64,000 nucleotides of DNA from an uncultured Bacilli bacterium (lineage in GTDB: Bacteria > Bacillota_I > Bacilli_A > RF39 > UBA660), in the NCBI GenBank assembly GCA_910578855.1, contig CAJTRV010000004.1:5551-69550 (forward strand), read 5' to 3'. The notes under the pieces are model-generated. The model was given only the letters and a program-made list of their open reading frames with translations. It made no database searches and had not been told where the DNA came from. Every line of letters begins with the position of its first letter. Position 1 is the stretch's first letter. Made by a program: the position numbers and the translations under genes. This document shows positions 6,497 through 33,025 of this stretch, one piece after another.

Positions 6497-6580
6497 AATA
6501 CCTCCATCAAACTTTACTACTCACTCTTATCATAACACAGTTAAATGAAATATAGAACTACTTTAATCATAAATATCTTC

Positions 6581-7672: not shown

Positions 7673-7684
7673 TCTATCACCCTT

Positions 7685-8677
7685 TTAAAACCATACTCCA
7701 AATGCCAGCGCAACCATTGCCCCCAATAGTCCGATAATCCAAAATAACTTCACAATATCATTTTCCTTCCAGCCCCATTTTTCAAAAGTATGATGAATCG
7801 GTGCCATAGGAAAAAGGCGTTTTTTCGTTAGTTTATAATAATAACGTTGTAAAATACAACTCATCGTTTCTAGAACAAAGACAATCCCGATGATCACTAG
7901 TAGCAATTCATGACGCGTCAAAATGGCTAGTGTTCCTAATGTTGCCCCAAGAGCGAGCGAACCGGTATCACCCATAAATATTTTAGCTGGTTTGGTATTA
8001 AACACAAGAAACCCTAGTAGTGATCCAATCAGAATAAAACAAAATAAGCCAAGATCCGTATACCCCTCTAACCAACCAGTATTATAACTAATTAAACCAA
8101 AAGCAAGAAAAGCAATAACGGAAAGACCGCCAGCAAGACCATCTAAGCCATCGGTTAAGTTAACCGCATTACTACTGGCAAGGAGCAAAAAGAGAATAAA
8201 TAAACCATAGAAGAACCCGATGTTACAGCGAATATTAAATGTATGAATCCAGATTAGTGGCTCGTTCCCAGCTTTCATAAATAAATAGAAAAAGACAATC
8301 GCAATGATCAATTGTAATAATAATTTTTGTCCCTCCGATAATCCTTTATTATTATGTCTTAACACAATTAGATAGTCATCGATAAACCCAATCATTGCAT
8401 AACCAATAAACGATAATAAAACGATTGCTAGCGTATAAGTCATCACCATCTTGCCTGTAAGAATTAAGATCGTCACCGTAAATAACGTTGGAAGTAGGAA
8501 AATAAGTCCGCCCATCGTCGGTGTATGCGACTTACTCTGGTGGGCCTCCCGAAGATAAATACTGAGATTTTGATCAACCTTAAATTTCTTTAAAATAGGA
8601 ATGAGAATCGCAGCGGTAATCACCGATAAAATAAATCCGATCATCATTGCTAGTACTGATTTTGTCATTAGTAACAT
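7685..8677 (-). CDS. mraY: Phospho-N-acetylmuramoyl-pentapeptide transferase
   Basis: Translation includes the NAVNLTDGLDGLA and MGDTGSLALG MraY motifs. Confidence 0.9.
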   Translation of the reverse strand: MLLMTKSVLAMMIGFILSVITAAILIPILKKFKVDQNLSIYLREAHQSKSHTPTMGGLIFLLPTLFTVTILILTGKMVMTYTLAIVLLSFIGYAMIGFIDDYLIVLRHNNKGLSEGQKLLLQLIIAIVFFYLFMKAGNEPLIWIHTFNIRCNIGFFYGLFILFLLLASSNAVNLTDGLDGLAGGLSVIAFLAFGLISYNTGWLEGYTDLGLFCFILIGSLLGFLVFNTKPAKIFMGDTGSLALGATLGTLAILTRHELLLVIIGIVFVLETMSCILQRYYYKLTKKRLFPMAPIHHTFEKWGWKENDIVKLFWIIGLLGAMVALAFGVWF

Positions 8678-8687
8678 ACCATTCCTC

Positions 8688-10604
8688 CTACTGTTTTAAT
8701 AACAATCTTACTACGTCACCCTCGTAAATTTTCTCGCCTGCTTTAGGTGATTGATAGGCGATTGTCTCCCCAGTTCCAGAAAATTCTACCTTGAAGCTGG
8801 TAAGCTCCTTCATCGCCTCACTGGTACTCTTGCCAACAACATTTGGAACCTTGGCATATTTCTTATCCCCATAGTTATAGCGTTTCTCGCTACTTCCTTT
8901 TCGTTTGGGAATATTAAGAGCAGTAATCGAATCTTGTAAAATAGTCTTAGCAATCGGTGCCGCAACAGTTCCACCATACTGGGTAATGCCCTTGGCATTG
9001 TCAATTGCTACATAGACAACAACCTGAGGATCATCAGCTGGTAAAAAACCAATAAACGAGGTAATATAGTTTCCTACCATATAACGACCATCCTTTACCT
9101 TTTGCGCTGTCCCAGTCTTTCCACCAACCCGGTACCCATCAATAAAGGCTGGGCGTCCTGTTCCATTGGTTACAACACTTTCTAGCGTCATTCGTACTTG
9201 CTCAGATGTTTTCGAACTGATGACTTTGCGGACCACTTTCTTCTTCGTCTCTTTAATTACACCATTGGTTTCCGGTTCATTTAAACTCTTAACAATATAG
9301 GGTTGATATAAGTATCCCCCATTGATGGCTGCACTAACTGCTGTAATCTGTTGAATTGGTGTAACTGATACCCCTTGCCCAAATGACGTCGTTGCAAGTT
9401 CAACAGGCCCTACTTTATCGAGTGGAAACAAGATACCAGATCCTTCTCCATTTAAATCAATTCCGGTTTTCGTTCCAAAACCAAAATTATGAATGTACTG
9501 GAACAATTTTTCCTTACCGATTCGCTGCCCCAGTACAACGAATCCTGGGTTGCATGAATTTTCAACAACCTGTAAAAAAGTTTGTTCCCCATGACCTCCA
9601 TGCTTCCAACACTTAATCTTGGCATTCTCAACCCGAATTGATCCCCCATCGGTAAACTTATCTTTATTAAGATCAACAAGCTTCTCTTCTAAAGCCGTTG
9701 CAAGGGTAATAATTTTAAATGTCGATCCTGGCTCATAGGTCATCCAAATTGGTAAATTTCGATTGATTTCCTCGATGGTATAATCTTGATAATTACTTGG
9801 TGAAAAATTAGGACGCGAAGACATTGCTAATATCTCCCCACTCTTAGGATCCATCACAATTCCAAGAGCTTGATCAGGATTATACTTTAACATCGCATTA
9901 TCTAGTTCCCGTTCTAGTGAGGATTGAATATCATAATTAATTGTTAACGTCATATTCATTCCATCCTGTGGTTTTTCATAGACCTCATTTAATTCTAACT
10001 TGTTTCCCTTGGCATCACTAAAATATTTAATTGCTCCATATTCTCCCGTTAAATACTGATCATACATGAGTTCCAATCCTGATAATCCTTGGTTATCAAT
10101 TCCAACAAATCCAATCGTATGTGATAAATACCGATCGTTAGGATAATTGCGTTTTGACTCTTTTACGAGATAAACCCCTGGTAATTCTAAAGCAGCAATT
10201 TTATCGGCAACATCATATGACAAACGGCGTCCTTCAGGGTGAACCCGTTCAATCGACTCCTTCTTGGTAACATGCTGATAAATAGTCTGATATGAAACAC
10301 CTAAAATCGCACTGATCTCTTTGGCTGTCTTTTCCTTATCTTTAATTTGATTGGGAATAAAGACCAATGACGATGTTGTTAGATTATCAGCGAGAACAAC
10401 CCCATTACGGTCATAGATATTACCACGACTCGCCTCGATAGGAAGATTACGACTCCATAAACCAGCTGCATATTGATTAAGACGTTTATAATCGATTACT
10501 TGAATATAAAAGACTTTCCCAATGATCATCAAAAATAATAGAAGCATGATCAATAAAACAATCCGAATACGATAGTGAATATTTTTAAAGAACATGGTAA
10601 TCAC
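8688..10604 (-). CDS. Class B penicillin-binding protein (SpoVD/PBP2B-like, single PASTA)
   Basis: STFK (SxxK) active site, SCN, KTGT motifs. One C-terminal PASTA domain. Confidence 0.8.
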   Translation of the reverse strand: MITMFFKNIHYRIRIVLLIMLLLFLMIIGKVFYIQVIDYKRLNQYAAGLWSRNLPIEASRGNIYDRNGVVLADNLTTSSLVFIPNQIKDKEKTAKEISAILGVSYQTIYQHVTKKESIERVHPEGRRLSYDVADKIAALELPGVYLVKESKRNYPNDRYLSHTIGFVGIDNQGLSGLELMYDQYLTGEYGAIKYFSDAKGNKLELNEVYEKPQDGMNMTLTINYDIQSSLERELDNAMLKYNPDQALGIVMDPKSGEILAMSSRPNFSPSNYQDYTIEEINRNLPIWMTYEPGSTFKIITLATALEEKLVDLNKDKFTDGGSIRVENAKIKCWKHGGHGEQTFLQVVENSCNPGFVVLGQRIGKEKLFQYIHNFGFGTKTGIDLNGEGSGILFPLDKVGPVELATTSFGQGVSVTPIQQITAVSAAINGGYLYQPYIVKSLNEPETNGVIKETKKKVVRKVISSKTSEQVRMTLESVVTNGTGRPAFIDGYRVGGKTGTAQKVKDGRYMVGNYITSFIGFLPADDPQVVVYVAIDNAKGITQYGGTVAAPIAKTILQDSITALNIPKRKGSSEKRYNYGDKKYAKVPNVVGKSTSEAMKELTSFKVEFSGTGETIAYQSPKAGEKIYEGDVVRLLLKQ

Positions 10605-10630
10605 CTCTAATAATGTATATGTACAAGCAC

Positions 10631-10659
10631 AAAAAAAAGAACAACATCACGATTGTTCT
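10631..10659 (-). terminator. Rho-independent terminator downstream of the deacetylase gene
   Basis: On the minus strand, AGAACAA-tcgtgatg-TTGTTCT hairpin followed by a T8 run. Confidence 0.5.
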
Positions 10660-10839
10660 TAGCGTTCTTTATGTGCATAAATATAAAGTGAGATAGGGTA
10701 ACCAATCTAATGATCATTGCGGTCATCAACCAGTAACAAAGTCCCTGGATGCGCAAAAAATATTTCAAATAATACTACACCAATGGGAAGATTATGCTTC
10801 CAGATTTTCCAAAAAGTTCTCCAGTAAGACAACTAAATC

Positions 10840-12042
10840 TTAATTGTTCACTCCATGATGGATGGGCTTAGTCCCAGCTGTAATCCGATCAAACTGATAG
10901 CCATTCTGTTTGCCATAGGTAATAATACGGTCTAAAGCATCCGCTGTTTGTTGGTTTGCTGCATAATCATGCATCAATACAACATATGTGGACTCATTAC
11001 CTAAACTAGACGTTACATTTTTGACAATCGCATCGCTCCCAATTCGCCCAGTATCTCCGCTATCAATATTCCAATCAAAATAATGAAATCCTCGGCGCAT
11101 TACTTCGGTTGTCAGAGTACTCATAATGCCTGGTTGAAACTTACTAACAGTATTCGAACTTCCTCCTGGAAAACGAATAATATTAGCATCTTCCCCAGTA
11201 ATCGTTTTTAAGCGAGCTCGTAATTCATAAAGATCTTTAAAATAAGTATCCACTGATTGATAAATATAACGATAATTATGCGTATTGCTATGAATTGCCA
11301 CCGTATGACCTTCATCATGTACTCGTTTCGTGATAGCATTGTAACTAGAATCTTTCCCGATCATAAAAAATGTTGCTTTGACCCCATGCTGCTTTAAAAC
11401 ATCCAATATGGCAGGTGTAACCTGCGATGGACCGTCATCAAATGTTAAATAAATAGTTTTTAAATTTGGATCTTTCTTAGGAACCACTCGAATTGTTCGG
11501 ATTTCCGTCACTTCATTCCCCGCTTGATCCTTACTATAATATTGTAATCGATATTCCCCCTGTTTCTTTGGATTGACTTGCCCCGTTACCCGAACAGATT
11601 TGGTAATATCTCCATCATTATTATCGATTGCCTGATAACCAGGCTCGGTATAGTTTGTCCCCTCTTCTACAAACATCTCTTTGGCTCCATGTAGGACAAG
11701 TCGGGGTTTATCACGGTCTATAACAATCACTGTTCGTGATTTACGAATCGTTCCATTTAGATAAGAAATACGATATTGAATTTGATACCTACCAGCTCTC
11801 TTCATATTTAAATTACTTTTAACGATAACCCGTGGTGACTTCATTCCAAGTATCACTGAAACCTTCGTTCCAGGATCAACATAGTTCTCCCCCATAGGAA
11901 TAGTCATTGTCTTTGGACCCTTCAATTGGATCCTTGGACGATATAATACCAGTCCCGTAATTAAAATAAATAAAAAACTCCAAAAAACAACGAGAAACTG
12001 CATTCTTCGCGTCCATTTTTTTATCGCTTGTTGCTTCATCAA
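10840..12042 (-). CDS. Polysaccharide deacetylase (NodB homology) with N-terminal TM and Ig-like domains
   Basis: TFDDGP motif and a HSNTH-containing catalytic region. N-terminal TM helix. Confidence 0.75.
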   Translation of the reverse strand: MMKQQAIKKWTRRMQFLVVFWSFLFILITGLVLYRPRIQLKGPKTMTIPMGENYVDPGTKVSVILGMKSPRVIVKSNLNMKRAGRYQIQYRISYLNGTIRKSRTVIVIDRDKPRLVLHGAKEMFVEEGTNYTEPGYQAIDNNDGDITKSVRVTGQVNPKKQGEYRLQYYSKDQAGNEVTEIRTIRVVPKKDPNLKTIYLTFDDGPSQVTPAILDVLKQHGVKATFFMIGKDSSYNAITKRVHDEGHTVAIHSNTHNYRYIYQSVDTYFKDLYELRARLKTITGEDANIIRFPGGSSNTVSKFQPGIMSTLTTEVMRRGFHYFDWNIDSGDTGRIGSDAIVKNVTSSLGNESTYVVLMHDYAANQQTADALDRIITYGKQNGYQFDRITAGTKPIHHGVNN

Positions 12043-12178
12043 TAATCACATCCTACATCCTCATCATTAGTATAACTAATTTTAATCAAAATACTCTTTT
12101 TATCATAACACACCCAAATCTTTTTGTATAGCAAGTTCTAACTTATTTTAGCAAAAAAACATAGTCATTTTTTCATGT

Positions 12179-14377
12179 CTATGTTTCTTTTTTAGAATCT
12201 TGTTCCTCTACATATTTATCATTTAAAATAATTTTAATCGTTTCTTTTCCAGTAATTACCGTTCCTGGTTTGATACTCTGGTTAGTAATATATCCATGTC
12301 CTTCTGTTTCATACGCAATTCCTAATAAGGTAAACAGGTGAATGGCATCACCACTCGACCAACCAGTTAAATCAATCATTTTTTTATTGGCATCATTGGT
12401 TAATAGAATTACTTTATCTCCTGACATAACGGTTGTTCCACGAGAAGGATATTGACTAATAATTTTTGCACCCTCTCCAATGACGATTGGCGTAATTTTT
12501 TGATTGGTTAACTCTTTTACCACCGTCTCCTTTGTTTTGTTGATATAGGATGGCAACACATAAGTAACAATCGCCGTCTTATCTAATGTTTCACCAAACA
12601 TATTTCTATATTTGGCAATACTAGTAATCACACTCTTAACCGCGGTATATAGGCCTTTACTTTCACCCCAGCTTGGTTTTCGCATGGCACCATAAATAAT
12701 AATTTCCGGCTCATCTTTGGGATACATCCCAGCAAACGAGAAAATATAATCATTTTTCCCACTCAAATATAGACCTGTTTCATTGTCAAAAATTTGGGCA
12801 GTTCCGGTTTTTCCAATAATATCAAAACCATCAATTTTATATGTTGTTCCGGTCGTTCCAAGATCTTTTCCGTGAATGGTATTCCACATCAATTCTTTCA
12901 TCTTATCAACCGTCGATTGTTTGACTAGTTGTTCTGATTCTTCCCGCTTCGCCTTATACGTAACTTTTTTGGTATTAGGATCGACGATTTTATCAACAAT
13001 ATGTGGTTTCAACATCTTTCCATTATTCGATAGAATTGTAAGGGCTTGTAAATTTTGAATTTGCGTTGTTGTAATCCCTTGCCCAAATCCCGCATTGGCA
13101 ACTTCAATGGGATATGTGAATGAAATATCACCAGTTTGTTCCCGAGGAAGTTCAATTCCCGTCTTCGCCCCAAAACCATATTTTTTAAGACAAGTCCGTA
13201 AATCTTCTTTATTGATAAACCGCGATAGCATATTGGTAATACCAACATTTGAAGAATACTCATACCCTTTATCAAAGGTGATGTTTCCCCAACCTTTTCG
13301 GTTCCAATCATATACCGTATTCTCACCTACAGCAATCGATCCCGATTTAAACGAAGCTTGACCATCATAAGTACCTTTTTCAAGCGCACACATATAGGTA
13401 AATGTCTTCATCGTCGATCCTGGTTCATAGACATATGAGACTAAAGGATTCTCATAGTTTTCAATATCTCGTAAATTAGGATCAAATGAAGGAATCGAGG
13501 AAGTACCAAGTATTTTCCCAGTCTTTGCATCCATAGCTGTTAAAATTAGCCATTCTGGATCATAAACGTTTTCACTTTCTTTCACCGCACTTTCGATAAA
13601 GCGCTGAATATTAGAGTCAAGTGTAAGATAGATATTTGCCCCATCCAAGGCTGGAGTCTTATATTCTTTCGTATCAGGTATTTGATATCCATTTCGGTCC
13701 TGTTGTTGCCTAAGACTCCCATTACTTCCTTTCAGTAAATCATCATACATACTCTCGATACCAAGCTCTCCAACAATATAGCTTTGAATGGTACTAATAC
13801 CATTATCTTCAATTGTTTTATCATACTGTTTGGCATATCCAACGACATAAGAAGCAAAATTTCCATTTGGATAGTAGCGTTTCTTATTCTCAGTAAAACC
13901 AATTCCTGGTAGCTCCAACTGTTCAATCTCTTCTTTTTTTAGCTCCGTAATTCCCCGACCACCAGGTCCAAGCTCAACCTGATAGGCATTGCTACTAAGT
14001 AGCCGCTCTAAATATTCTACAGTCATCCCAAGAACGGGCGCTAATTTTTCGGCTGTCTTCTTTTTATCGACAACATGACGTGGCTTTTTCGAATTGGTGG
14101 TTCGGCTCTCACTTAGATAAGCAACCACCGTATACGAGTAAACATTTAAAGCGAGCGTATTTCCATCTTTATCATAGATATTTCCCCGCTTCGCATATAA
14201 TGTTTTCGTTACTGTATTTCGAGCCTTAGCAAATTTCTCCATATTAATTCCATAAATAATTGGTGACAATGATAAATAACACAATTGCACATACAAAAGA
14301 ACCATAAAAAAAAGGAAGCATTTTAAAATCAAATTTGGAAATTTCCAAGCTTTTAATTTTACACTTCTCTTCTTCAT
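12179..14377 (-). CDS. Class B penicillin-binding protein (PBP2B/FtsI-type) with two PASTA domains
   Basis: STMK, SSN, KTGT motifs. Two C-terminal PASTA repeats. Follows ftsL. Confidence 0.8.
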   Translation of the reverse strand: MKKRSVKLKAWKFPNLILKCFLFFMVLLYVQLCYLSLSPIIYGINMEKFAKARNTVTKTLYAKRGNIYDKDGNTLALNVYSYTVVAYLSESRTTNSKKPRHVVDKKKTAEKLAPVLGMTVEYLERLLSSNAYQVELGPGGRGITELKKEEIEQLELPGIGFTENKKRYYPNGNFASYVVGYAKQYDKTIEDNGISTIQSYIVGELGIESMYDDLLKGSNGSLRQQQDRNGYQIPDTKEYKTPALDGANIYLTLDSNIQRFIESAVKESENVYDPEWLILTAMDAKTGKILGTSSIPSFDPNLRDIENYENPLVSYVYEPGSTMKTFTYMCALEKGTYDGQASFKSGSIAVGENTVYDWNRKGWGNITFDKGYEYSSNVGITNMLSRFINKEDLRTCLKKYGFGAKTGIELPREQTGDISFTYPIEVANAGFGQGITTTQIQNLQALTILSNNGKMLKPHIVDKIVDPNTKKVTYKAKREESEQLVKQSTVDKMKELMWNTIHGKDLGTTGTTYKIDGFDIIGKTGTAQIFDNETGLYLSGKNDYIFSFAGMYPKDEPEIIIYGAMRKPSWGESKGLYTAVKSVITSIAKYRNMFGETLDKTAIVTYVLPSYINKTKETVVKELTNQKITPIVIGEGAKIISQYPSRGTTVMSGDKVILLTNDANKKMIDLTGWSSGDAIHLFTLLGIAYETEGHGYITNQSIKPGTVITGKETIKIILNDKYVEEQDSKKET

Positions 14378-14390
14378 AGGTTCACCTCGA

Positions 14391-14687
14391 TTATTTATTA
14401 ATTATTACAATATTATCATTATTATACTCTAAACCCATTTCCTTGGCAACATCTTTCACTTTATCAAAAGATGTTAACTCATTGACTTTCATCGTTAAAC
14501 TCTCATTCTTTTTTTCTTGTTGGGTAATATCATATTTTAACTTTTCAACATTCATTTTTAAATTTCCAATATTGGCTCCACAAAAAATAGAGGAAGCAAA
14601 AGAAAGCACAGCACAAAGAACTGCTGCTGTATATAATATTTTCTCACCCTTAGTAATACGTAGTCTTCTCACTTTTCTCGTTCTCAC
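14391..14687 (-). CDS. ftsL: Cell division protein FtsL
   Basis: 98 aa, single TM, coiled coil. Located between rsmH and the PBP gene. Confidence 0.7.
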   Translation of the reverse strand: MRTRKVRRLRITKGEKILYTAAVLCAVLSFASSIFCGANIGNLKMNVEKLKYDITQQEKKNESLTMKVNELTSFDKVKDVAKEMGLEYNNDNIVIINK

Positions 14688-14701
14688 ACTGAACCCTCGC
14701 T

Positions 14702-15619
14702 TTATTTTATTCTTTCAATGACTCTAAGTCGCGCACTACGAGCCCGATTGTTTTCTTCTAATTCCTCAGTACTTGGACAAATATTAGCAATGATTTGATA
14801 CTTTGGCAAGTATTCCTCCGGAACTACCGGCAATTGCCGCAAGCTAGCATCCATTGTACTATGTGCTTTAAAGATCGTCTTTACCAACCGATCTTCTAAG
14901 GAATGAAAGGTAATTACACAGACTCTTCCCCCTACTTTGACAAGCTCCAGTGCTTGTCTTACCGCTTCTTCACAGACTGCTAATTCCTGATTCACTTCAA
15001 TTCGAATTGCCTGAAACACTTTGCGTGCAGGATGTTTTAAACGACGATATTTTTCAGGAACATGATTCTTAATAATCTCAACCAGCTCTAATGTCGTGGC
15101 AATTGGTTGTACTTCTCTTGCTTGAACAATTCCCCGGGCAATTTGATAAGCAAATTTTTCTTCTCCATATTCTTTAAAAATACGGGTTAAATCAGAAATC
15201 GTATAAGTATTAACCACTTGATAAGCAGATAACGCTTGATCCTGATCCATGCGCATATCAAGCGGTGCATCCTGATGAAAACTAAACCCCCGATCTTTTT
15301 CATCTAATTGTGGACTTGAAACCCCAAGGTCAAACAAGATCCCATCGACCTCTTGGATTCCCCGCTTCTGTAATTCTTCTGTCATATGACAAAAATTACT
15401 CTTGATAATTTCAAAATTAGGCGCTATTTCACTAAGCCGTTTCTGACTATGAGAAATAGCATCGCGATCTTGGTCAAAGGCGAATAGAAACCCCTTTTTA
15501 ATTTCTTTTAAAATGGCACTACTGTGCCCGCCATATCCCAAGGTGGCGTCGACGATAATACTATCGTCGTGTATTTTTAAATAGGATAGACTCTCTTCTA
15601 ATAAAACACTTTTATGCAT
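14702..15619 (-). CDS. rsmH: 16S rRNA (cytosine1402-N4)-methyltransferase
   Basis: N-terminus VLLEESLSYL...VDATLGYGGHS is the MraW signature. Confidence 0.9.
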   Translation of the reverse strand: MHKSVLLEESLSYLKIHDDSIIVDATLGYGGHSSAILKEIKKGFLFAFDQDRDAISHSQKRLSEIAPNFEIIKSNFCHMTEELQKRGIQEVDGILFDLGVSSPQLDEKDRGFSFHQDAPLDMRMDQDQALSAYQVVNTYTISDLTRIFKEYGEEKFAYQIARGIVQAREVQPIATTLELVEIIKNHVPEKYRRLKHPARKVFQAIRIEVNQELAVCEEAVRQALELVKVGGRVCVITFHSLEDRLVKTIFKAHSTMDASLRQLPVVPEEYLPKYQIIANICPSTEELEENNRARSARLRVIERIK

Positions 15620-15627
15620 AGTCCCTC

Positions 15628-16059
15628 CTAATTAAAACTTGTAGAAAATAGATTATCAGCAATTGCTGATAAGTTGCTCTCATTTTCATCAATAAACGCT
15701 TCCCAACGATCTTTACTCCAGATTTCCAAACGATCATTGACGCCAATAATAATACAGTCTTTCACTAGACCGGCAAATTTCATCAGTGGTGGTGTTAATT
15801 TTAAACGTCCTTGTTTATCAAATTCACAAGTGGTCGCACCCGATAAAAAGAAGCGCATGAAATTACGAGCATCTTTCGTATTGGGTAATTCTTTGTACTT
15901 CTCAATAATGGAATTCCATTCTTTCATCGGATAGACAAATAGACAGTTATCAAGACCTCGCGTCACGACAAAAGTTTCTCCTAGGTCATAACGGACTTTC
16001 GACGGAATGGTTAATCGGCCTTTGTCATCAACCGAATGATGATATTCCCCCATCAACAT
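15628..16059 (-). CDS. mraZ: Transcriptional regulator MraZ
   Basis: MLMGEYHHSVDDKGRLTIPSK...: two DxxxR repeats. The start was moved to an internal Met to give the ~143 aa typical of MraZ. Confidence 0.85.
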   Translation of the reverse strand: MLMGEYHHSVDDKGRLTIPSKVRYDLGETFVVTRGLDNCLFVYPMKEWNSIIEKYKELPNTKDARNFMRFFLSGATTCEFDKQGRLKLTPPLMKFAGLVKDCIIIGVNDRLEIWSKDRWEAFIDENESNLSAIADNLFSTSFN

Positions 16060-24139: not shown

Positions 24140-24216
24140 GGACCTTTAGCTCAGTTGGTTAGAGCATCCGGCTCATAACCGGACGGTCGATGGTTCGAGT
24201 CCATCAAGGTCCACCA
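24140..24216 (+). tRNA. tRNA with anticodon CAU; the GGACC... acceptor stem suggests tRNA-Ile2 (lysidine) rather than elongator Met
   Basis: 77 nt cloverleaf. Acceptor GGACCTT/AAGGTCC. Anticodon loop CTCATAA. Encoded CCA. Confidence 0.8.
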
Positions 24217-24222: not shown

Positions 24223-24307
24223 GCGAGTGTGGCGAAATTGGCAGACGCACTAGACTTAGGATCTAGCGCCTTATGGCATGGGGGTTCAAGTCCCTTCACT
24301 CGCACCA
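24223..24307 (+). tRNA. tRNA-Leu (anticodon UAG)
   Basis: 85 nt. Acceptor GCGAGTG/CACTCGC. Anticodon loop CTTAGGA. Long variable arm. Encoded CCA. Confidence 0.8.
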
Positions 24308-25210: not shown

Positions 25211-25558
25211 TTATAATTTGATGCTAATATTTTTAGTTGCTCCCTGATTACCAGTTGCAAATACTTTTATACTTTCTGGATCTGTTAAAAAGTACATGTT
25301 GTAAACTACTTTTTCCCTTATTAATTGTAACCATTTATTATCATCATCAACCATAGATCTACCAAACCTTGAAATTAGAACTAAATCGTCACCAATTTCA
25401 GTTATGTTTCTTTTTATTGTATCAACGTCATTGTGAATAAATCCACATGCATCTGAACAAGCTAAAAGATAATCTAGCGCCTGAAAATCTTCTAAACTTT
25501 GAAGTCGATTCCAAAGCCTACCACTTTTTAAAGTCGTCAAACTTGCTAAACTTATCAA
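25211..25558 (-). CDS. Hypothetical ORF, probably a gene fragment (TTG start in track)
   Basis: The frame stays open ~60 nt upstream of the called start. No recognisable domain. Confidence 0.3.
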   Translation of the reverse strand: MISLASLTTLKSGRLWNRLQSLEDFQALDYLLACSDACGFIHNDVDTIKRNITEIGDDLVLISRFGRSMVDDDNKWLQLIREKVVYNMYFLTDPESIKVFATGNQGATKNISIKL

Positions 25559-25645: not shown

Positions 25646-26650
25646 TTATAATAGCGTTTTTAATACTAAGTCAATTAAAAAAGAGATCGTTTTAGATTTT
25701 CCATAAAATTGATAAAAAAAGTTTCTAATATAGGTATTATAAATTAAGAATTTTGATATTCTATGATTAAAAATTATAAATCTATCCTTCCACATTCGAA
25801 CTTTATAAAACCAATTCATTGATTTTGATAAATTATAAGAAGATGATACAGCATAATAAATTCCCTCACCACTTACTGGAGAAATAAGACCTGCGGCATC
25901 TCCTACAAAAAATATATCCCCTTTTCTCAGAAAAATATTATTCCCTGTTGGCAAAAAGGCTCCCCTCATAGGAATATCATTCTTTAAATAAAAATGATTT
26001 AAAAATATATTTTGAATATCCGTATTTTGAGAAACATCTCCCAACCCCCTCAAATTAGTTTTATTATTTGAAATAGTCCAAGCATATCCTTTGAAATGAT
26101 TAAAAAAATCTATTTGAATTATTTCGTTTTTTATGGCATTTTCACTTTCAATAGCAAAATTCATTTTCTGACGTTTACCTGTCAAATCATTTCTTACTTT
26201 ACTAAAAACCCCGTCTGCCCCAACTAAATGATTATATTTAAAAGCTTTCTCAGAAGTATATATAATTTTATTTTTAAAATCTATTTTTTCATAACTAGTG
26301 TTATCAATAACTTTCCCACCACATTGTTTAAACTGATTAACTACAAAATCGTCCAAATCTTTTCTATCTATTGTATATATCGAATGCATCTTTATTTCTT
26401 TTGTAATTCCATTATTATTAACCTTAAAAGTATCAAATTTTTTAAAATCTATTTTTGCAAGTTCTGTTCCATATATTTTAAATAAAAGTTTATATGCCTT
26501 CGTTGTAACGATCCCCCCACATAATTTGTTTTTCTTTTTTAAATCTTGACTTTCAACAATCATTACAGTTTGTTTTTTATTTAGAAGAAGATTACCCAAA
26601 GTGCATCCTGCTAATCCCGCTCCTATTATTATAGTATCAAAATACTCCAT
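25646..26650 (-). CDS. FAD-dependent oxidoreductase, geranylgeranyl-reductase-like family
   Basis: IIGAGLAGC (GxGxxG), CGGIV and GDAAGLISPVSGEGI motifs. The gene is extremely AT-rich. Confidence 0.65.
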   Translation of the reverse strand: MEYFDTIIIGAGLAGCTLGNLLLNKKQTVMIVESQDLKKKNKLCGGIVTTKAYKLLFKIYGTELAKIDFKKFDTFKVNNNGITKEIKMHSIYTIDRKDLDDFVVNQFKQCGGKVIDNTSYEKIDFKNKIIYTSEKAFKYNHLVGADGVFSKVRNDLTGKRQKMNFAIESENAIKNEIIQIDFFNHFKGYAWTISNNKTNLRGLGDVSQNTDIQNIFLNHFYLKNDIPMRGAFLPTGNNIFLRKGDIFFVGDAAGLISPVSGEGIYYAVSSSYNLSKSMNWFYKVRMWKDRFIIFNHRISKFLIYNTYIRNFFYQFYGKSKTISFLIDLVLKTLL

Positions 26651-26894
26651 TTTAACCTCCGATATTTAAATTTTTCCTTTTGATAATTATACCATTTTTT
26701 ATAAATTTATAATAGAATACTAAAATCTTTTTATATGCTTTTTATTTAACCAAAAGTTACATAATTATAATCGATATCGTAAATATAGTATTAAATCAAT
26801 ATAGCTCCATCTTATCCTATTGTATACAACTCTATCTAATTACCGATCCCTGTCCCCTAACCTCATCAAAAATACACGTTATTCATAAAAAATA

Positions 26895-26903
26895 TGCTAT
26901 AAT
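26895..26903 (+). promoter_or_regulatory. Extended -10 (TGcTATAAT) upstream of the WYL regulator
   Basis: About 35 nt upstream of the GGAGGTG RBS and TTG start. Confidence 0.3.
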
Positions 26904-26937
26904 AGTTATAATCATTTTAACCATTGGAGGTGTTGGA

Positions 26938-27537
26938 TTGTCAAAGATATCAAATGTTATAACAATGCTTAATCTTCTAGCAACTGGTAAAAAATATGGC
27001 ATTAAAGAACTCGCTAATCTGCTAGAAGTATCACCAAGAATGATTAGAATATATAAAGAAGAGTTAGAAAAAGCAGGAATCTATATTGATTCTATTATGG
27101 GACCATATGGAGGATATGTCTTAAATCAAACAATTAGAATTCCAAAACGTAAATTTAAACAAGAAGATTATCTATTACTCGATCAACTACTAACGAATCA
27201 TATTTCTAATCTAGAAAAAGAAAAACTAGAACTATTAAAAGATAAAATTAGAGGTATCTACATTGGAAGTACCCAAGAAAGAGTCGAATTAAATTTGGAC
27301 GATTACAATTTAAAAAAATATAATATTTTAACACGAGCCATTAAAGAAAGACAAAAAGTAAATACCTTATATTATTCTTATAACAAAGGTGAACATGAAA
27401 GAGTAATCTGTCCAGCTGAAATGTTTTTATTTAAAGATGGCTGGTATTGTGCCGCCTATTGCACCCTTAAACACGATATGAGACACTTTGAATTAAAACG
27501 AATTAGAAATATAGAACTTTTAGATGATAAATTTTAG
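26938..27537 (+). CDS. HTH + WYL-domain transcriptional regulator
   Basis: N-terminal DeoR-type HTH (YGIKELANLLEVSPRMIRIY). C-terminal WYL region (LFKDGWYCAAYCTLKHDMRHFELKRI). TTG start with a GGAGGTG RBS. Confidence 0.75.
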   Translation: MSKISNVITMLNLLATGKKYGIKELANLLEVSPRMIRIYKEELEKAGIYIDSIMGPYGGYVLNQTIRIPKRKFKQEDYLLLDQLLTNHISNLEKEKLELLKDKIRGIYIGSTQERVELNLDDYNLKKYNILTRAIKERQKVNTLYYSYNKGEHERVICPAEMFLFKDGWYCAAYCTLKHDMRHFELKRIRNIELLDDKF

Positions 27538-27549
27538 AGTAGACCATAT

Positions 27550-27592
27550 ATTACCTCCTTACGTGATAAGATTCATGTAGGAGGTAATTTTA
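27550..27592 (+). terminator. Terminator-like hairpin whose 3' arm is the SD of the next gene
   Basis: 10-bp perfect stem ATTACCTCCT / AGGAGGTAAT, 19-nt loop, then TTTTAATT and an ATG at 27596. Confidence 0.5.
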
Positions 27593-27595
27593 ATT

Positions 27596-28510
27596 ATGAA
27601 AGACAATATGAATGATAATTTTTCTAAATTACAAGCAAGAGTCTTCGATTCTATAGGCAAAACAGATTTACTAGCAATACGAAATATTTTATCTACAATA
27701 AAGGACCCTACACTGGTAAGTGGGGTCGGTGGTTCATCCGTAGTGAGTTTATTTTTATCCAAAGTATTAAGTGCTAAAAATAATATTATATGTGAAGATG
27801 TGACCCCAAGAGACTTAAATTATAAAAATTTACAAGGTTTTAAAAATATCATCGTCTGTAGTTATGGAGGGCTTAACTATGGTGTTACAACAGCCTTTAA
27901 TCATGATTTAACAAAATATTTATTGGCTAGGAACACCAAAGACGAAATCATCAATCTTCAATATCAAAACGATGATCTAGAAAAAAGTTTTATTTCACTG
28001 GCGGCAACTTTAATCCCAATGACTATTTCCTTGATGTATTATTTGGACAATGATCCTACGATTATCTATGAAATTTTGAATTCATCACCTCAGTTTGATT
28101 TTATCGATCATGATATCTATGAAATATTGACTGGATACGAAACGAGCACAGCCGCAAGATTCATGGAATCAACCCTAGTCGAAGCAGGGCTTGCAATTCC
28201 TATCCTCCACGATAAATATGACTATTGTCATGGAAGAACAACATTAGGCTTTCAACAAGATCATGGTTTACTATTCTTTAATAATCATAATGAGTTAGAC
28301 CAACTATATAGCGAGATACTAAATCATGCCTATCACAACATCATCACAATCGATCGAAAATATGATGATCATATTATTAACGATTATTATTTTACCTATA
28401 TAAGTATGCTATTATGTAAGAAAATTGCCGAACAAAAAGGAAAAGATTTATCAAATGTAAGTTATTCGCCACTCGTCAAAAAACTATATTTTTATAAAGG
28501 AGAAATGTAA
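27596..28510 (+). CDS. Hypothetical protein with an N-terminal SIS-like (sugar isomerase/phosphosugar-binding) fold
   Basis: LVSGVGGSSVVSLFLSKVL resembles the SIS GxGxS nucleotide/sugar-phosphate loop. The remainder is unassigned. Confidence 0.4.
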   Translation: MKDNMNDNFSKLQARVFDSIGKTDLLAIRNILSTIKDPTLVSGVGGSSVVSLFLSKVLSAKNNIICEDVTPRDLNYKNLQGFKNIIVCSYGGLNYGVTTAFNHDLTKYLLARNTKDEIINLQYQNDDLEKSFISLAATLIPMTISLMYYLDNDPTIIYEILNSSPQFDFIDHDIYEILTGYETSTAARFMESTLVEAGLAIPILHDKYDYCHGRTTLGFQQDHGLLFFNNHNELDQLYSEILNHAYHNIITIDRKYDDHIINDYYFTYISMLLCKKIAEQKGKDLSNVSYSPLVKKLYFYKGEM

Positions 28511-29586: not shown

Positions 29587-30819
29587 TTATTCATTAAAAA
29601 TTCCTTTTAACATATTGGATACCGCAACAAAAATAGCTGATATTCGATACCAAGTAGCAAAGTTAACAATTCCTGTAACTGGTAGATTAAAAACACGTTG
29701 AAATACCTTTACGGCCTCGATCGTATCTGGGCCATATATTCCATTGGCCTTTTGAATGGAAGGAATAGCAGGATAACTCCCTCTAATTTTATTCAATGCA
29801 TTTTGTAATAGTTGAACTTCTTCACCACATGCCCCTTCTGTCAAATTATAACCTGGAAACGAAGTTGGCAACCCTGGGACAATTTCAGCTGTAACAAGCT
29901 CGATGGTATTTCCATAATAATAACGAACAATTTGTAGAGAATTATAACCTTGGTCCCCTAGTGACTTAGACCCCCACTGACTAAGCCAACCTTCTCGCAC
30001 TACATTAATTCCATCACTATATTGGGCAAAAAAAGGATAAGAACGTCCAGGAAATTTTAAATATTCCATAAATACTTCATCGACTACATTAGATATGGTA
30101 TCAAAAATTGTTCGATTATGAGAATATTTTTGATCATATGCAGTCGAAGAGGTAATCGTAAAATTATACCCTTTAGAGTAATACCATTCCGTATAGACCC
30201 GATTTAAAGTAAATGATACAATCGCATGGACATTGGCCTTTAGTGTTTCTCTAGGCCAACTAGGATAAATTTCTGACGATGTGACATTCTTGATATAATC
30301 TGAAAATGATACATAATAATTTGGAGCATAAGTATCCGTAGGAATTCCATCATGAACAATAATATATTCGGGAATGACAACCCGGGGTAATACCTTAGAT
30401 TCCAATGATCCTATCTCTGGATGTTCAACAATTTTGGGAACTTCATTGTCCCATATCGTTGGTGGTGGGACAATTGTTGTTATCTTTCCTGATCCCCCTG
30501 TTGTTGTACTGAGATATACATCCTGAATCGATGTAATACCAGCATAAACTTGAACCCCGAGAACGGTTCCGGTTCCAAGGCCATCTTTGGTTACGGTAAC
30601 ATTATACGTCTCCCAAGGTTGAACTATCGTCTGTGGTTCTAAAGAGTATTCGATATTAGGTGCTTCAAGAGCAATCGCCTCCGTCCTTCCAGATTCATCA
30701 GTAACAACATTAATATTGGTATTATTTCCACTAATATTCACTCTGGCCCCCATTAATGGTTGCGCAACATTATCTACAAACACATTCACAACCAAATGTC
30801 CAATTGCCATAACACTCAA
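29587..30819 (-). CDS. Cell-wall hydrolase-like protein with a C-terminal peptidoglycan-binding domain (SleC/cortex-lytic-like)
   Basis: C-terminal PG_binding_1 (GEEVQLLQNALN...GIYGPDTIEAVKVFQ). N-terminal carboxypeptidase-regulatory-like region. Confidence 0.45.
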   Translation of the reverse strand: MSVMAIGHLVVNVFVDNVAQPLMGARVNISGNNTNINVVTDESGRTEAIALEAPNIEYSLEPQTIVQPWETYNVTVTKDGLGTGTVLGVQVYAGITSIQDVYLSTTTGGSGKITTIVPPPTIWDNEVPKIVEHPEIGSLESKVLPRVVIPEYIIVHDGIPTDTYAPNYYVSFSDYIKNVTSSEIYPSWPRETLKANVHAIVSFTLNRVYTEWYYSKGYNFTITSSTAYDQKYSHNRTIFDTISNVVDEVFMEYLKFPGRSYPFFAQYSDGINVVREGWLSQWGSKSLGDQGYNSLQIVRYYYGNTIELVTAEIVPGLPTSFPGYNLTEGACGEEVQLLQNALNKIRGSYPAIPSIQKANGIYGPDTIEAVKVFQRVFNLPVTGIVNFATWYRISAIFVAVSNMLKGIFNE

Positions 30820-30928
30820 ATCCTTTCTTTCTATAATTCAATATATGTTTTTTAACAACTAATATCATTAAAAGACAACATTTTTCATCTTTCTAATATA
30901 ATACAAGTAATAGAGATGGGGTTATAAA

Positions 30929-31942
30929 ATGAATGATAACAAAAAATACTTTGTTCACCAAGAAACGGTTTCATCACTAGAAAATATGTATTTTAATGAT
31001 GTAATTACGATGATTCAACATCAACTTAAAACATTAGGTTATTATGATGTCAGCATTACCGGTAGCTACGACCACAATACCAAAACAGCAATCAAAAATT
31101 TTCAGACAGATCACCATTTAAAAAACGATGGTACGCTCAATGATCAAACCTGGGATACACTTTACTCTAACAGAAATAATTTAGAGCGCCAAGTAGCGGA
31201 ACGCCAAACAAGACCGGTTCTTAGACTCGGTAGTACTGGCCCATATGTAACGGAGTTACAAACAATTTTAAAAAATCTTCTTTACTATACTGGTACCATT
31301 GATGGTAATTTCGGAAATACTACTGCTCTCGCAGTCAAAACATTTCAGACGAATAATCACTTAACACCAGATGGTGTTGTCGGTCGAGATACTTGGAGTG
31401 CCCTTTCGACGCTATATTCACCACTGGCTATCTGTGATGACAACGAAAATGGAAATGGGAATAATCCAATTTCTTATACAGTGGTGGCCGGGGACTCCTT
31501 ATGGAGTATTGCCAAACGATTTAATACTACCGTTGAGGCAATTAAACAATTAAATCAATTAACGAGTGATGTTATTTATGTTGGTCAGCAACTTCTCATC
31601 CCGAGCGGCAATGATAATGGAACACCGCCAACTTATACCCTATATACGGTGGTAGCTGGTGATTCTCTATGGAATATTGCCAAACGATTTAATACCACCG
31701 TTGAAGAGATTAAAAGCCTCAATAATCTGACAAGTAACCTATTAACTATCGGTCAACAATTAAAGATCCCATCAGATACTTCAAATGTCATCACCTATAC
31801 AGTAATTGCTGGGGATACATTATGGAAAATAGCTCAAAAATTTAATACTACTGTAAATACATTAAAAAGCTTTAACAATCTTACCAATGACACTTTAAAT
31901 ATTGGTCAGCAATTAAGAATCCCAATCAATCGTAACGAATAA
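30929..31942 (+). CDS. Protein with two peptidoglycan-binding domains and three LysM domains
   Basis: 2x PG_binding_1 (LKNDG/LTPDG, TWDTL/TWSAL). 3x LysM (YTVVAGDSLWSIAKRFNTTV...). Confidence 0.75.
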   Translation: MNDNKKYFVHQETVSSLENMYFNDVITMIQHQLKTLGYYDVSITGSYDHNTKTAIKNFQTDHHLKNDGTLNDQTWDTLYSNRNNLERQVAERQTRPVLRLGSTGPYVTELQTILKNLLYYTGTIDGNFGNTTALAVKTFQTNNHLTPDGVVGRDTWSALSTLYSPLAICDDNENGNGNNPISYTVVAGDSLWSIAKRFNTTVEAIKQLNQLTSDVIYVGQQLLIPSGNDNGTPPTYTLYTVVAGDSLWNIAKRFNTTVEEIKSLNNLTSNLLTIGQQLKIPSDTSNVITYTVIAGDTLWKIAQKFNTTVNTLKSFNNLTNDTLNIGQQLRIPINRNE

Positions 31943-31973
31943 AAAATACCATCGAAATGGTATTTTTTGTTTC

Positions 31974-32942
31974 TTATATAATTAATCGTTGGCCTGGATA
32001 AATTCTATTGGGATTATCTCCAATCGTTGCTTTATTCTTATTATAAATAGTCTGCCATGTCGTCCCAAATTGTTTGGCAATTTTAGATAAATTATCGCCT
32101 TTTTTTACAATATAAACAGTTGGTTCAACTGCAGTAGATGGCAAGATTAGTACTTGACCTGGATAGATTAGATTGGGATTTTTAATATGATTCAATGCTA
32201 CTAATGTCGCAACAGTTGTTTGGTACCTACTTGCAATCGTCGATAAGTTATCACCAGCTTTTACGACATATGTTTTCTGATTAGTTGGTGGTTCATCTGG
32301 ATCAGTTGGTTCTGTTGATTCATCTAGGTGGTTTAATCCTCGTTCTTTTATGATCATAGGATAATCTAGATAAGCAATATCACGATCGACTCGACCATTA
32401 ATTCCGGAAATACTTCCATCACTCGTATACTGCCACATACCAAATGGTTTATCATAAGTAGGAAGATTACTCCATTGTGCCAACCACTTATCATAGCGAT
32501 CTAATTTAGGTGAATTTAATTTTGATTGAAAAAAGGCTTTGCTCGAATATATTCCTACATAGTATCCAGCCTGCTCTATTTTATCACAAAATGTTTGACA
32601 CATTTTTACCAGCATTTCATTACTATTTTGGTCGGTATAAGAGTTAGCCTCAATATCATAATAAATCGGATATTCTAGTCGGTAATTCTTAGCCAATCGT
32701 AAAGCATGATCTGCTTCACTACTCGCTTCAGCTGTTCCCCTGGCGTAACTAAATAAATAGATTCCAAAGGGAATCCCTAACCGAGTACATTCTGAAGCAT
32801 TACGGTGGAACTTTGTATCATCTTGACTAGTACGATCAACACCATAACCACATCTTAAAATAGCAAAATCAACTTGATCTTTAACTTTTTCCCAATCGAT
32901 ATCACCTTGGTAATAAGAAACATCAATTCCTTGCTTTTCCAT
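31974..32942 (-). CDS. GH25 muramidase with two C-terminal LysM domains
   Basis: [11 protein letters not shown]25 N-terminus. 2x LysM. AAAGGAG RBS before MEKQGI. Confidence 0.8.
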
Positions 32943-33025
32943 ATACAACTCCTTTCGTTATTATAGTATACGAATGAAATAATATAAGAGTAAGGAAGTC
33001 AAACTAAAAAAGAAGGAATAACCTT

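Follow-up and report, generated by a model that had tools for sequence, protein, structure and literature searches.

Three open reading frames (ORFs) in the window, i.e. the whole 64-kb stretch of DNA that was analyzed, had been noted in an initial annotation, and all three are real and lie at the coordinates given there (Table 1). The first encodes a flavoprotein, which matched FAD_binding_3 and the TIGR02032 “GG-reductase family” (E 2.9e-37). Its earlier designation as GGR-like was retained for the predicted similarity at the superfamily level only, as the 129 bits scored against TIGR02032 fall short of the 158.8 required for family membership. The flavoprotein gene had also been counted in a three-gene combination with the WYL regulator gene and the gene of the SIS-like protein. 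In a tblastn comparison, L001 and L002, both near-identical to the window, were the only loci with the GGR-like gene next to the WYL–SIS pair, and the count among the 80 other species-level loci was 0; the GGR-like and FkbM methyltransferase genes accompanied the pair only in the near-identical contigs L001–L004. A GGR–WYL–SIS system was thereby ruled out, and the flavoprotein gene is a lineage-specific neighbor, located beside tRNA genes and an IS256 remnant, rather than a member of the unit. An Rfam 15 scan of the whole window found two tRNAs and nothing else. The WYL gene, on the other hand, was directly upstream of the SIS gene in 75 of 80 species-level loci with differing flanks, and the adjacency persisted in remote relatives, in agreement with the early suggestion that the regulator belongs with its neighboring gene. 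The junction between the two genes, initially described as tight, is actually a 58-nt spacer, and this spacer is itself strongly conserved.

Table 1. Features at the WYL–SIS locus (positions are those of the window)
Feature	Position	Strand	Remarks
GGR-superfamily FAD oxidoreductase gene (predicted)	25646-26650	-	334 aa; outside the two-gene unit
wHTH-WYL regulator gene	26938-27537	+	199 aa; TTG start; GGAGG SD 7 nt upstream
Spacer between the WYL and SIS genes	27538-27595		58 nt; strongly conserved
Motif M (TAGACCATATATTACCT), putative operator/promoter element for the WYL protein	27540-27556	+	-39 to -23 from the inferred start site
Hairpin	27550-27588	+	5′ arm = anti-SD; 3′ arm contains the SIS SD (GGAGG, 27580-27584); followed by a T-run (27588-27591)
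Extended -10 box, TGaTAAGAT	27564-27572	+	hexamer 27567-27572 is exactly the hairpin loop
Gene of a divergent double-SIS enzyme, predicted phosphosugar isomerase/deaminase type	27596-28510	+	304 aa

The regulator gave a Pfam WYL match at residues 129–193 (E 1.8e-16, 60.3 bits against a cut-off of 21.8), an HTH_11 match at residues 10–60 whose 25.0 bits are exactly the cut-off, and an Rrf2 match (3.8e-6); its best PADLOC match was the generic “WYL” model (1.5e-29). At most 6 residues follow the WYL domain before the chain stops at residue 199, and a C-terminal WCX domain is absent. Its homologs, among the matches listed, are 190–222 aa long, nearly all 197–200, and the structural relatives of its model are 266–330 aa. 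That model, which is moderately confident (pLDDT 69), aligned with wHTH-WYL factors over approximately 210 columns, and its top four Foldseek matches were PafBC, BrxR, DriD and CapW. The regulator profile aligned with the WYL domains of PafBC, BrxR and CapW, PafBC being the best sequence match (3.5e-9). Across loci, the regulator is 57–75% identical. Of the four residues through which CapW contacts ssDNA (S144, R164, R168 and R184), two have an aligned counterpart in S147 and R182, both invariant; at the positions of the two arginines flanking the WYL triad in the repressor-class RWHVR motif, the regulator has G168 and A172. The factor is probably a homodimer rather than a PafB/PafC-like heterodimer. 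Operator repeats between 26651 and 26937, upstream of the WYL gene, had been put forward for checking; the search returned AT-rich chance matches only, none of them conserved, and this candidate was rejected. Different species do not share the sequence that precedes the WYL gene, and in many cases this region directly borders the next gene upstream; no conserved operator of the WYL gene's own was found in the regions compared.

Searches of Pfam, PADLOC, PHROGs and PDB sequences returned no match for the 304-aa protein. A direct sequence relationship with known SIS proteins was rejected, because phmmer and hmmsearch against PDB returned nothing relevant and hhalign of the family against E. coli GlmS (probability 0.1) revealed no sequence similarity. 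The sole trace in the family libraries was the archaeal PGI/PMI model TIGR02128 at 0.017, a model of 308 positions and thus close in length to the protein; the same model reached 7.5e-7 for a fusion relative. The AF2 model (pLDDT 90.9, pTM 0.92) matched double-SIS enzymes in Foldseek with E 9e-13 to 1e-9 and TM 0.65–0.75, at 12–15% identity. A total of 138 PDB chains matched at E <= 1e-3, and the 50 listed of these 138 were all double-SIS enzymes or putative phosphosugar isomerases; the matches include Lmo0035, NagB-II, the GlmS isomerase domain and FrlB. The SIS-like character guessed initially from a GVGGSS loop was borne out by this model and its matches. In sequence, the link is transitive: the window protein did not match PF01380 directly, the family profile matched P0333 (a PfkB::SIS fusion) at 3.3e-34, and P0333 matched PF01380 with 32.8 bits against a cut-off of 25.

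Invariant residues of the family are G43-x-G45-G46-S47, S89, E196, H212-G-R214 and K295-K296. By motif order, spacing and fold topology, and not by residue-level superposition, S47/S89/E196/H212 correspond to S52/S97/E227/H243 of NagB-II and to S303/S347/E488/H504 of GlmS. The E-x15-H spacing (a 16-residue E-to-H distance) is the same in all three, and the C-terminus of the family resembles the KG.D...K tail of GlmS. The family shares the two-SIS fold, the Ser-rich phosphate loops, the Glu-x15-His pair and the C-terminal lysine tail with the GlmS isomerase domain, NagB-II, AgaS, FrlB and archaeal PGI/PMI. Unlike in these enzymes, the canonical SxSGxT is S89-Y-G-G-x-N94, and a family-specific motif, H205-D-K-Y-D-Y-C-H212-G-R, is present. 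The model places the protein in the GlmS-isomerase/NagB-II/FrlB/PGI-PMI class, and it most likely isomerizes or deaminates a phosphosugar. The initial annotation had named a sugar-phosphate isomerase in a conserved sugar operon as the finding that would speak against its proposal; the fold and catalytic residues are indeed those of a phosphosugar isomerase/deaminase, but no conserved sugar operon surrounds the gene. Homologs number 862 proteins at 90% clustering and 358 clusters at 50%, all unannotated and called “hypothetical” wherever a source gives a name. The family is absent from the copies of Pfam, NCBIfam, PADLOC and PHROGs that were searched, and the protein defines a sizeable family that these libraries do not recognize.

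The two-gene unit was found in at least 161 species-level genomes, labeled mostly as uncultured gut Bacilli, with one copy per locus. All carriers of the pair are uncultured MAGs. Its recurrent neighbors are the housekeeping genes Ham1/RdgB, FtsE, RF2, rpsL/rpsG and cysS. Among the five loci where no WYL gene adjoined the SIS gene, three are cut by contig ends and two (L047 and L054) are real WYL deletions, in both of which the SIS gene survives. A toxin–antitoxin reading was rejected, since the SIS gene outlasts the deletion of its partner and retains its predicted enzyme active site. Remote relatives (profile E about 1e-30) are single polypeptides in which a PfkB sugar kinase domain precedes the double SIS; in others, SIS is fused to a Ham1 NTP pyrophosphatase. 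Both kinds of fusion adjoin orthologous short WYL genes, whose products are 36–45% identical to the regulator of the window. The PfkB half scored far below the cut-offs for fructokinase, ribokinase, ribose-1-P kinase, FrlD and heptose-7-P kinase, and its placement in a substrate subfamily was rejected for this reason; a search of metagenomes with P0333 gave 0 matches.

The spacer contains two elements that suggest a promoter. Motif M is a pseudo-palindrome of 17 bp (consensus TWGACnAwATAyTtCCT), invariant at 11 of its 17 positions among 69 distinct sequences. Its dyad, centered at -30/-29, is imperfect, with a mean of 5.6 of 9 symmetric positions and a fixed C/C clash. The right half of M also serves as the anti-SD, so that the constraints on M are confounded. 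M overlaps the stop codon of the WYL gene, and three reading frames are represented in this overlap across loci; it occurs once per locus and only at this junction; it is absent from the shared 287-bp GGR/WYL intergenic region. A second, inverted copy inside the SIS gene (27679-27696, minus strand) was rejected because it is not conserved in other loci. The -10 box lies at a fixed 25-nt offset from the G of GAC (T in 69/69, A in 68/69 and the final T in 62/69), i.e. exactly 21 nt after GACn, and the M/-10 spacing is fixed in 69/69 sequences. An extension was present as TG at -15/-14 in 44/69 and as G at -14 in 62/69, and no -35 box was found at the canonical 17-nt spacing. Hexamers resembling a -10 box are common in DNA of 30% GC. 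In L096, M and the -10 box keep their 21-nt spacing and the hairpin is missing; in L095, M occurs twice upstream of the WYL gene itself, with the same 21-nt spacing to a -10 box, and the SD of that gene is 60 nt away. The identical spacing in these two contexts argues that M and the -10 box act on DNA. Considering that PafBC, BrxR, DriD and CapW all bind palindromes of roughly 20 bp or promoter motifs, M is a probable candidate for the binding site of the WYL protein.

Superimposed on these elements is a hairpin, which in the window has a free energy of -21.5 kcal/mol (RNAfold). All 63 of 63 homologous spacers folded, with a mean z of -5.9. RNAalifold on a MAFFT alignment gave no structure, as the 3′ arm was out of register, and this was resolved by alignment to a covariance model: 86% of cells were paired, and 52 cells had changed on both sides, compared with 18±3 in shuffles (0/500). 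On the plus strand, 103 G·U pairs were counted against 2 C·A mismatches, i.e. G·U tolerance is seen on the mRNA strand only. The stems have 10–17 pairs, with a mean ΔG of -15.6 kcal/mol; in 58/69 sequences, four or more consecutive T residues came next, and a terminator consensus scan flagged the site. The hairpin thus has the features of an intrinsic terminator (a stable stem-loop and a U-run), and termination at this site is predicted. The covariance model detected the junction element once per locus in 82 loci, on the plus strand only. It is not a described Rfam family, since Rfam 15 gave no match to 27538-27595 even at E <= 10. Within the 64-kb window, this was the single site where an anti-SD/SD hairpin directly precedes a start codon, and anti-SD hairpins as a pervasive design of the genome were rejected accordingly. 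One analog was observed in L082 (1212-1267), where an unrelated junction has a comparable promoter inside a terminator hairpin and the spacer is a normal 16 nt, and therefore a hairpin of this design does not by itself distinguish the WYL–SIS unit. Translational coupling through ribosomes terminating on the WYL gene was judged unlikely, as the stem begins 10–16 nt past the stop codon.

As a whole, these observations led us to propose, at a likelihood that we put near one half, that the pair is a dedicated two-gene regulon in which a minimal, WCX-less wHTH-WYL factor controls a promoter nested in the terminator of its own gene, and this promoter drives a divergent double-SIS phosphosugar enzyme. 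Transcripts of the WYL gene would end at the hairpin, which would act as a terminator/insulator, and in those that read through, the SIS SD would be kept masked. Transcripts from the nested promoter would begin inside the 3′ arm and hence lack the 5′ arm, leaving the SD free. Expression of the SIS gene would then be set by the WYL protein at the nested promoter, in response to a ligand of its WYL domain. Placing the promoter within a terminator, with the ribosome-binding site of the next gene in the 3′ arm, would constitute a compact insulation device.

With regard to the sign of regulation, we lean slightly towards activation over repression. This preference is based on PafBC being the best WYL match, on the replacement of the RWHVR arginines and on the missing -35 box; in addition, both WYL deletions also lost M and the -10 box, and their SIS genes are joined to other upstream DNA. 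PafBC and DriD, which are wHTH-WYL-WCX activators of the DNA-damage response, have the winged HTH and the WYL domain in common with the regulator. The promoters at which PafBC acts have no working -35 box, and the motif it uses there is situated between -35 and -10; the position of M and the lack of a -35 box at the canonical spacing are similar here. Unlike PafBC and DriD, the regulator lacks the WCX domain, which serves in dimerization and contributes to the ssDNA crevice, its predicted target is a sugar-phosphate enzyme gene and not DNA repair, and its host belongs to the Bacilli, with about 30% GC. CapW and BrxR, which repress CBASS and BREX, are wHTH-WYL-WCX proteins built alike at the N-terminus, and their genes likewise immediately precede the operons under their control. 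They differ in having the RWHVR arginines, WCX and associated defense genes, and the candidate operator here is not at the regulator's own promoter. MurR/RpiR–MurQ units similarly pair a dedicated regulator with an SIS-enzyme gene for a phosphosugar step, but there the sensor is an SIS domain fused to the HTH, whereas here it would be the WYL domain.

Three alternatives were weighed against the two-gene regulon. The first, to which we give some weight although it is unlikely, is that the protein is a housekeeping enzyme (the phosphoglucose/phosphomannose isomerase of the lineage or an SIS-type GlcN6P deaminase) with an incidental regulator; the junction would be a terminator plus a constitutive promoter, and M an unusual RNA polymerase or UP-type element. 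This would agree with the size of the protein and its weak TIGR02128 matches, the housekeeping neighbors, the breadth of the family, the persistence of SIS without WYL in two MAGs and the nested arrangement in L082, while leaving unexplained the constant association of one short WYL subfamily with SIS across deeply diverged relatives and three kinds of domain fusion, the invariance of M and its restriction to this junction, and its recurrence upstream of the WYL gene in L095.

Quite unlikely, in our judgment, is control at the RNA level, in which the WYL protein would bind the single-stranded leader GUAGACnAAAUA on a bicistronic mRNA and stabilize or melt the terminator/anti-SD hairpin (attenuation or translational control). 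WYL domains are Sm-like in fold, and WYL1 of type VI-D CRISPR is reported to bind ssRNA (PMC6547453). Such a mechanism would agree with the strand-specific G·U tolerance and the covariation, and with a conserved 5′ motif that is left unpaired just ahead of the stem; however, what is conserved in the loop is a -10 box, at a fixed distance from M, both elements occur in L096 without the hairpin and in L095 far from the SD, and the winged HTH is like that of DNA-binding WYL factors.

Very improbable is the WYL-regulated defense/stress module envisaged in the initial annotation, with the SIS protein as effector or sensor of an anti-phage/stress system: wHTH-WYL factors often control defense systems (PMC9122601, PMC11662680), the remote PfkB::SIS operon of L096 lies in a serine-recombinase-bearing element that splits a PBP5 gene, and in L007 an insertion immediately before the WYL gene encodes 978-aa and 230-aa proteins without assigned function and an HD protein, but PADLOC gave no significant match for the SIS protein, the PfkB::SIS fusion, HAD-X or other partners (only the WYL protein matched, with the generic model), no relatives were found in 2.9 million viral contigs, the metabolic catalytic site appears intact, the flanks are housekeeping genes around a single unit per locus, and WYL loss is tolerated with SIS retained. 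Nothing indicates an anti-phage system, and a phage origin was rejected on the basis of the viral contigs.

Returning to the two-gene regulon, we know of WYL-domain transcription factors only as ssDNA sensors controlling DNA-damage and anti-phage genes, all characterized ones of which need WCX, and the WYL fold is known to us so far for nucleic-acid ligands. Here, a minimal WCX-less form is locked to the gene of a predicted metabolic enzyme, which, if confirmed, would widen what WYL domains sense and regulate; it would also provide a very small system for finding a ligand, consisting of a single factor, a single 17-bp site and a single target gene. In a more speculative and rather improbable extension, the unit would be the minimal core of an undescribed nucleotide-linked sugar-phosphate metabolism or metabolite-repair pathway. 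The WCX-less factor would sense a nucleic-acid- or nucleotide-derived ligand and switch on the new double-SIS enzyme in a PafBC-like, -35-independent manner, which to our knowledge is not yet known in Bacillota. Partners of this enzyme would be a Ham1-type pyrophosphatase for non-canonical NTPs and, in older relatives, also a PfkB kinase together with a HAD phosphatase; it might serve ribose-phosphate salvage from scavenged nucleotides or amino-sugar adduct deglycation. The Ham1 and PfkB fusions are leads to the pathway of the SIS protein, and a Ham1-type pyrophosphatase is fused or adjacent to SIS in many genomes. The window protein has no kinase domain, whereas the remote PfkB::SIS members resemble FrlD/FrlB (a PfkB kinase with a double-SIS deglycase) and other kinase–isomerase pairs; the JGI label for the SIS half of these fusions is “FrlB-like”.

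The three ORFs of the initial annotation are real and encode proteins of 334, 199 and 304 aa, as it had placed them. The divergent 334-aa protein is a FAD oxidoreductase, whose resemblance to geranylgeranyl reductase (GGR) lies under the family cut-off, and the best PADLOC match of the 199-aa protein (WYL) is the generic "WYL" model. To compare loci, the gene for the 304-aa protein (SIS) was fetched from 80 further species-level genomes, of at least 161 encoding a relative; their records are mostly titled uncultured Bacilli, "Tenericutes" or Erysipelotrichaceae gut MAGs, Candidatus Coprovivens and CAG:460. The WYL gene was directly upstream of SIS in 75 of the 80 loci; three others end at contig edges, and two (L047 and L054) have lost WYL through a genuine deletion that spares SIS. 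WYL was better conserved than SIS (57–75% versus 45–64% identity). The WYL subfamily comprises 2551 homologues, and carriers of the pair include complete MAGs such as the circular JBAMOY010000001.1 (1.2 Mb). The proposed three-gene combination reduces to a two-gene unit, because only contigs that are close to identical with the window have the flavoprotein and an FkbM methyltransferase beside the pair. This WYL-SIS unit is real and strongly conserved, and its most informative part is the junction between the two genes, which the initial annotation had passed over. The WYL regulator without a WCX domain, the SIS family and the proposed nested promoter/terminator are new, each varying a known kind.

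Features of the window around the WYL-SIS pair
Feature	Position	Strand	Remarks
tRNA-Met	24140-24216		
tRNA-Leu	24223-24307		
IS256/Mutator transposase fragment, 106 aa	24673-24993		model positions 137-232 of 338
115-aa ORF	25211-25558		without assigned identity; followed by the GGR-like gene
GGR-like flavoprotein, 334 aa	25646-26650	-	divergent from WYL
WYL regulator, 199 aa	26938-27537	+	TTG start behind a GGAGG Shine-Dalgarno (SD) sequence; HTH_11 and WYL domains
Junction	27538-27595		spacer between WYL and SIS
Motif M	27540-27556		conserved box of the junction
SIS, 304 aa	27596-28510	+	
SpoIID-like protein with PG_binding_1	29587-30819	-	cell-wall cluster, 29587-32948
PG_binding and triple-LysM protein	30929-31942	+	cell-wall cluster
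GH25 muramidase, two LysM repeats	31974-32948	-	cell-wall cluster

The neighbours that recur beside the pair are housekeeping genes, namely those for the Ham1/RdgB NTP pyrophosphatase, FtsE, RF2, rpsL/rpsG and cysS; in 15 loci the Ham1/RdgB gene is directly downstream, and its start is no more than a few bases from the SIS stop codon. The suggestion that the genes form a defence module gained no support: SIS and its partners had no PADLOC match, no relative was present in viral contigs and the flanks are housekeeping, with the sole exception of a remote operon (L096) located in an insertion that carries a recombinase and interrupts a PBP5 gene. Nor do the surroundings form a recognisable sugar operon; neither a transporter nor any additional catabolic gene is conserved there. 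The initial annotation had named a clear metabolic identity of the 304-aa protein, together with a conserved sugar-modification operon, as the finding that would overturn its reading; the fold and motifs of the enzyme are indeed of the phosphosugar type, but no such operon is conserved around it.

The 304-aa protein had no match in Pfam, PADLOC, PHROGs or PDB sequences, and its sole family-library match was to archaeal PGI/PMI (0.017). Its family comprises 862 proteins at 90% clustering; none contains a Pfam domain, and the few members named by their sources are called "hypothetical protein". The SIS-like nature proposed initially was borne out by the AlphaFold model, which was confident (pLDDT 90.9, pTM 0.92; built on 29 members), and by the active-site motifs. 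In Foldseek the model matched the double-SIS enzymes Lmo0035, NagB-II, the isomerase domain of GlmS, FrlB, AgaS-like proteins and TM0813 (E 9e-13 to 1e-8, TM approximately 0.7, 12–15% identity); direct sequence comparison showed no similarity to GlmS. The family-invariant residues G43-V-G45-G46-S47, S89, E196 and H212-G-R214 occupy the active-site places of SIS enzymes, which in NagB-II are S52/S97/E227/H243, reported to equal GlmS S303/S347/E488/H504. The Glu-to-His distance is 16 residues in SIS, NagB-II and GlmS alike, and the C-terminal KGKD...P-L-V-K295-K296 of SIS resembles the KGTDVDQPRNLAK tail of GlmS. A profile search of 1.8 billion representatives reached proteins of 640–670 aa, which join an N-terminal PfkB sugar kinase to a C-terminal half that belongs to the SIS family (E 1e-20 to 1e-34), is above the Pfam SIS cut-off and is labelled "FrlB-like" by JGI. 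Fold and motifs together suggest that SIS is a catalytically competent enzyme of the phosphosugar isomerase or deaminase type, in a new and very divergent SIS family. A subgroup of SIS proteins carries an N-terminal extension of approximately 118 aa (MENKEFIMYILSDEYITWL..., Cys-rich near its end) without a Pfam match, for example at L054 (2695-3966) and L059 (5647-6921), and also at L063, L066, L069, L074, L077, L084, L089 and L092; here the junction element stands before the longer ORF.

The junction spacer is 50–58 nt long, conserved at the nucleotide level across the species compared, present in one copy per locus and without a match to any Rfam family. Among 69 distinct sequences, 11 positions of motif M (consensus T-W-G-A-C-n-A-w-A-T-A-y-T-t-C-C-T) are invariant. 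Its overlap with the stop codon of WYL occurs in three different frames, indicating that the constraint acts on nucleic acid. The motif is roughly dyad-symmetric about a central T/A step (5.6 of 9 positions; other centres scored 0.3–2.6, except for 4.3 at an adjacent AT-rich centre). An extended -10 hexamer is fixed 25 nt from the G of GAC (T in 69/69, A in 68/69, final T in 62/69), preceded by TG in 44/69 and with G at -14 in 62/69. No -35-like box was observed at the canonical place, and the TWGAC block is 21 nt, not 17, from the hexamer. This 21-nt spacing is kept in the remote locus L096, where motif M and the -10 box follow WYL without a hairpin, and in L095, where two tandem copies of motif M (approximately 8905-8960) precede WYL itself; on this evidence motif M and the -10 box seem to be signals at the DNA level, and the hairpin seems to be an addition at the RNA level.

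The hairpin has 10–17 pairs and contains the -10 box within its loop; in the window the loop (27567-27572) consists of the hexamer and nothing else. The 5′ arm (CCTCC...) complements the SIS SD in the 3′ arm, an arrangement of anti-SD hairpin before a start codon that is the single case within the 64-kb window. In 58 of 69 sequences the stem is followed by a T-run of at least 4. All junction sequences fold (mean z -5.9). In a covariance-model alignment, which was fitted to the structure and so favours the pairing figures, 86% of cells pair, and slid controls collapse; 52 cells had changed on both sides, compared with 18±3 in shuffles (0/500). The mRNA strand has 103 G·U pairs and 2 C·A mismatches, whereas the opposite strand would have 18 G·U and 33 A·C/C·A, and this asymmetry argues for selection of the hairpin on RNA. 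An unrelated junction in L082 (1212-1267) likewise has a terminator-like hairpin with the SD of the next gene in the 3′ arm and a -10 box (TAAAAT) in the loop; unlike the WYL-SIS junction, it has a -35 box of normal type (TTGTCA) with a 16-nt spacing. Junctions that nest a promoter in a terminator may be a recurrent economy in these compact AT-rich genomes.

The regions upstream of the WYL gene are not conserved across loci and contain no motif M, and WYL would be transcribed from whatever lies upstream. Its transcript would stop at the hairpin, and in read-through RNA the SIS SD would be locked. SIS would be driven by its own promoter inside the hairpin; because the predicted start, approximately 7 nt past the -10 box (near 27579), is inside the 3′ arm, SIS mRNA would lack the anti-SD and be translatable. 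The WYL protein probably binds motif M, which spans -39 to -23. The closest structures to the WYL protein are PafBC, BrxR, DriD and CapW, which bind palindromic sites or promoter motifs. We lean towards activation rather than repression, since PafBC is the best match of the WYL domain, in which the RWHVR arginines usual in the repressor class are missing, since the SIS promoter, like PafBC-dependent promoters, has no usable -35 box, and since both natural WYL deletions also lost motif M and the -10 box, leaving SIS behind other DNA. In CapW the WCX domain forms part of the ssDNA crevice; the WYL protein has no WCX domain, and its ligand may therefore differ from ssDNA. The deletion in L047 (5880-6003) fuses the first ~30 WYL codons straight to the 3′ arm of the hairpin, so that an intact SIS stands behind the WYL promoter as a ready-made "regulator-less" allele.

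The link between SIS and WYL is old; the fusions are also accompanied by short WYL genes. Those adjoining PfkB::SIS (L094-L096) are 36–45% identical to the window WYL, and a short WYL gene also precedes SIS fused at its N-terminus to Ham1, an XTP/dITP diphosphatase-like protein (L098, 2235-3716; L099, 6001-7632), with the same junction element in L098. L099 has a further, free-standing Ham1 gene just after its fusion (7632-8213); this nucleotide house-cleaning enzyme is repeatedly linked to the SIS family, by fusions and by adjacency in the 15 other loci. The L095 and L096 operons also encode a 770–782-aa protein (HAD-X), whose N-terminal domain is a Cof-type HAD phosphatase, and a 162–173-aa protein. 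The PfkB half could not be assigned to any subfamily. The associated domains, Ham1, PfkB kinase and Cof-type HAD phosphatase, are the sole functional clues, and would suit a route in which a phosphosugar passes through kinase, isomerase and phosphatase steps, perhaps tied to nucleotide turnover.

In L096 (387-9722), genes for a serine recombinase, an HTH_36 protein, a sigma-70 region-2 protein, WYL, the 173-aa protein, the 770-aa HAD-X and PfkB::SIS sit between the halves of a PBP5-type carboxypeptidase gene (Peptidase_S11 ... PBP5_C), which looks like an integrated element interrupting that gene. The remote L095 operon (4625-15896) is within a nucleotide-sugar-like cluster of HAD-X, PfkB::SIS, WYL, a P-loop protein, a 561-aa protein with a weak radical-SAM match, NUDIX, HD and methyltransferase-HD proteins, together with a glucose-1-P cytidylyltransferase-like gene (278 bits, just under the cut-off of 300).

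Comparison of L007 with L005, syntenic apart from this insertion, showed that genes for 978-aa and 230-aa unknown proteins, neither with a Pfam or PADLOC match, and for an HD-domain protein lie between a conserved 173-aa gene and WYL (1037-5322). In the window, the tRNA genes seem to border a small lineage-specific insertion zone that includes the GGR-like gene. Set against L009, the DNA separating a conserved 139-aa gene from cysS appears to be variable, with the WYL-SIS pair inside it inverted with respect to its flanks.
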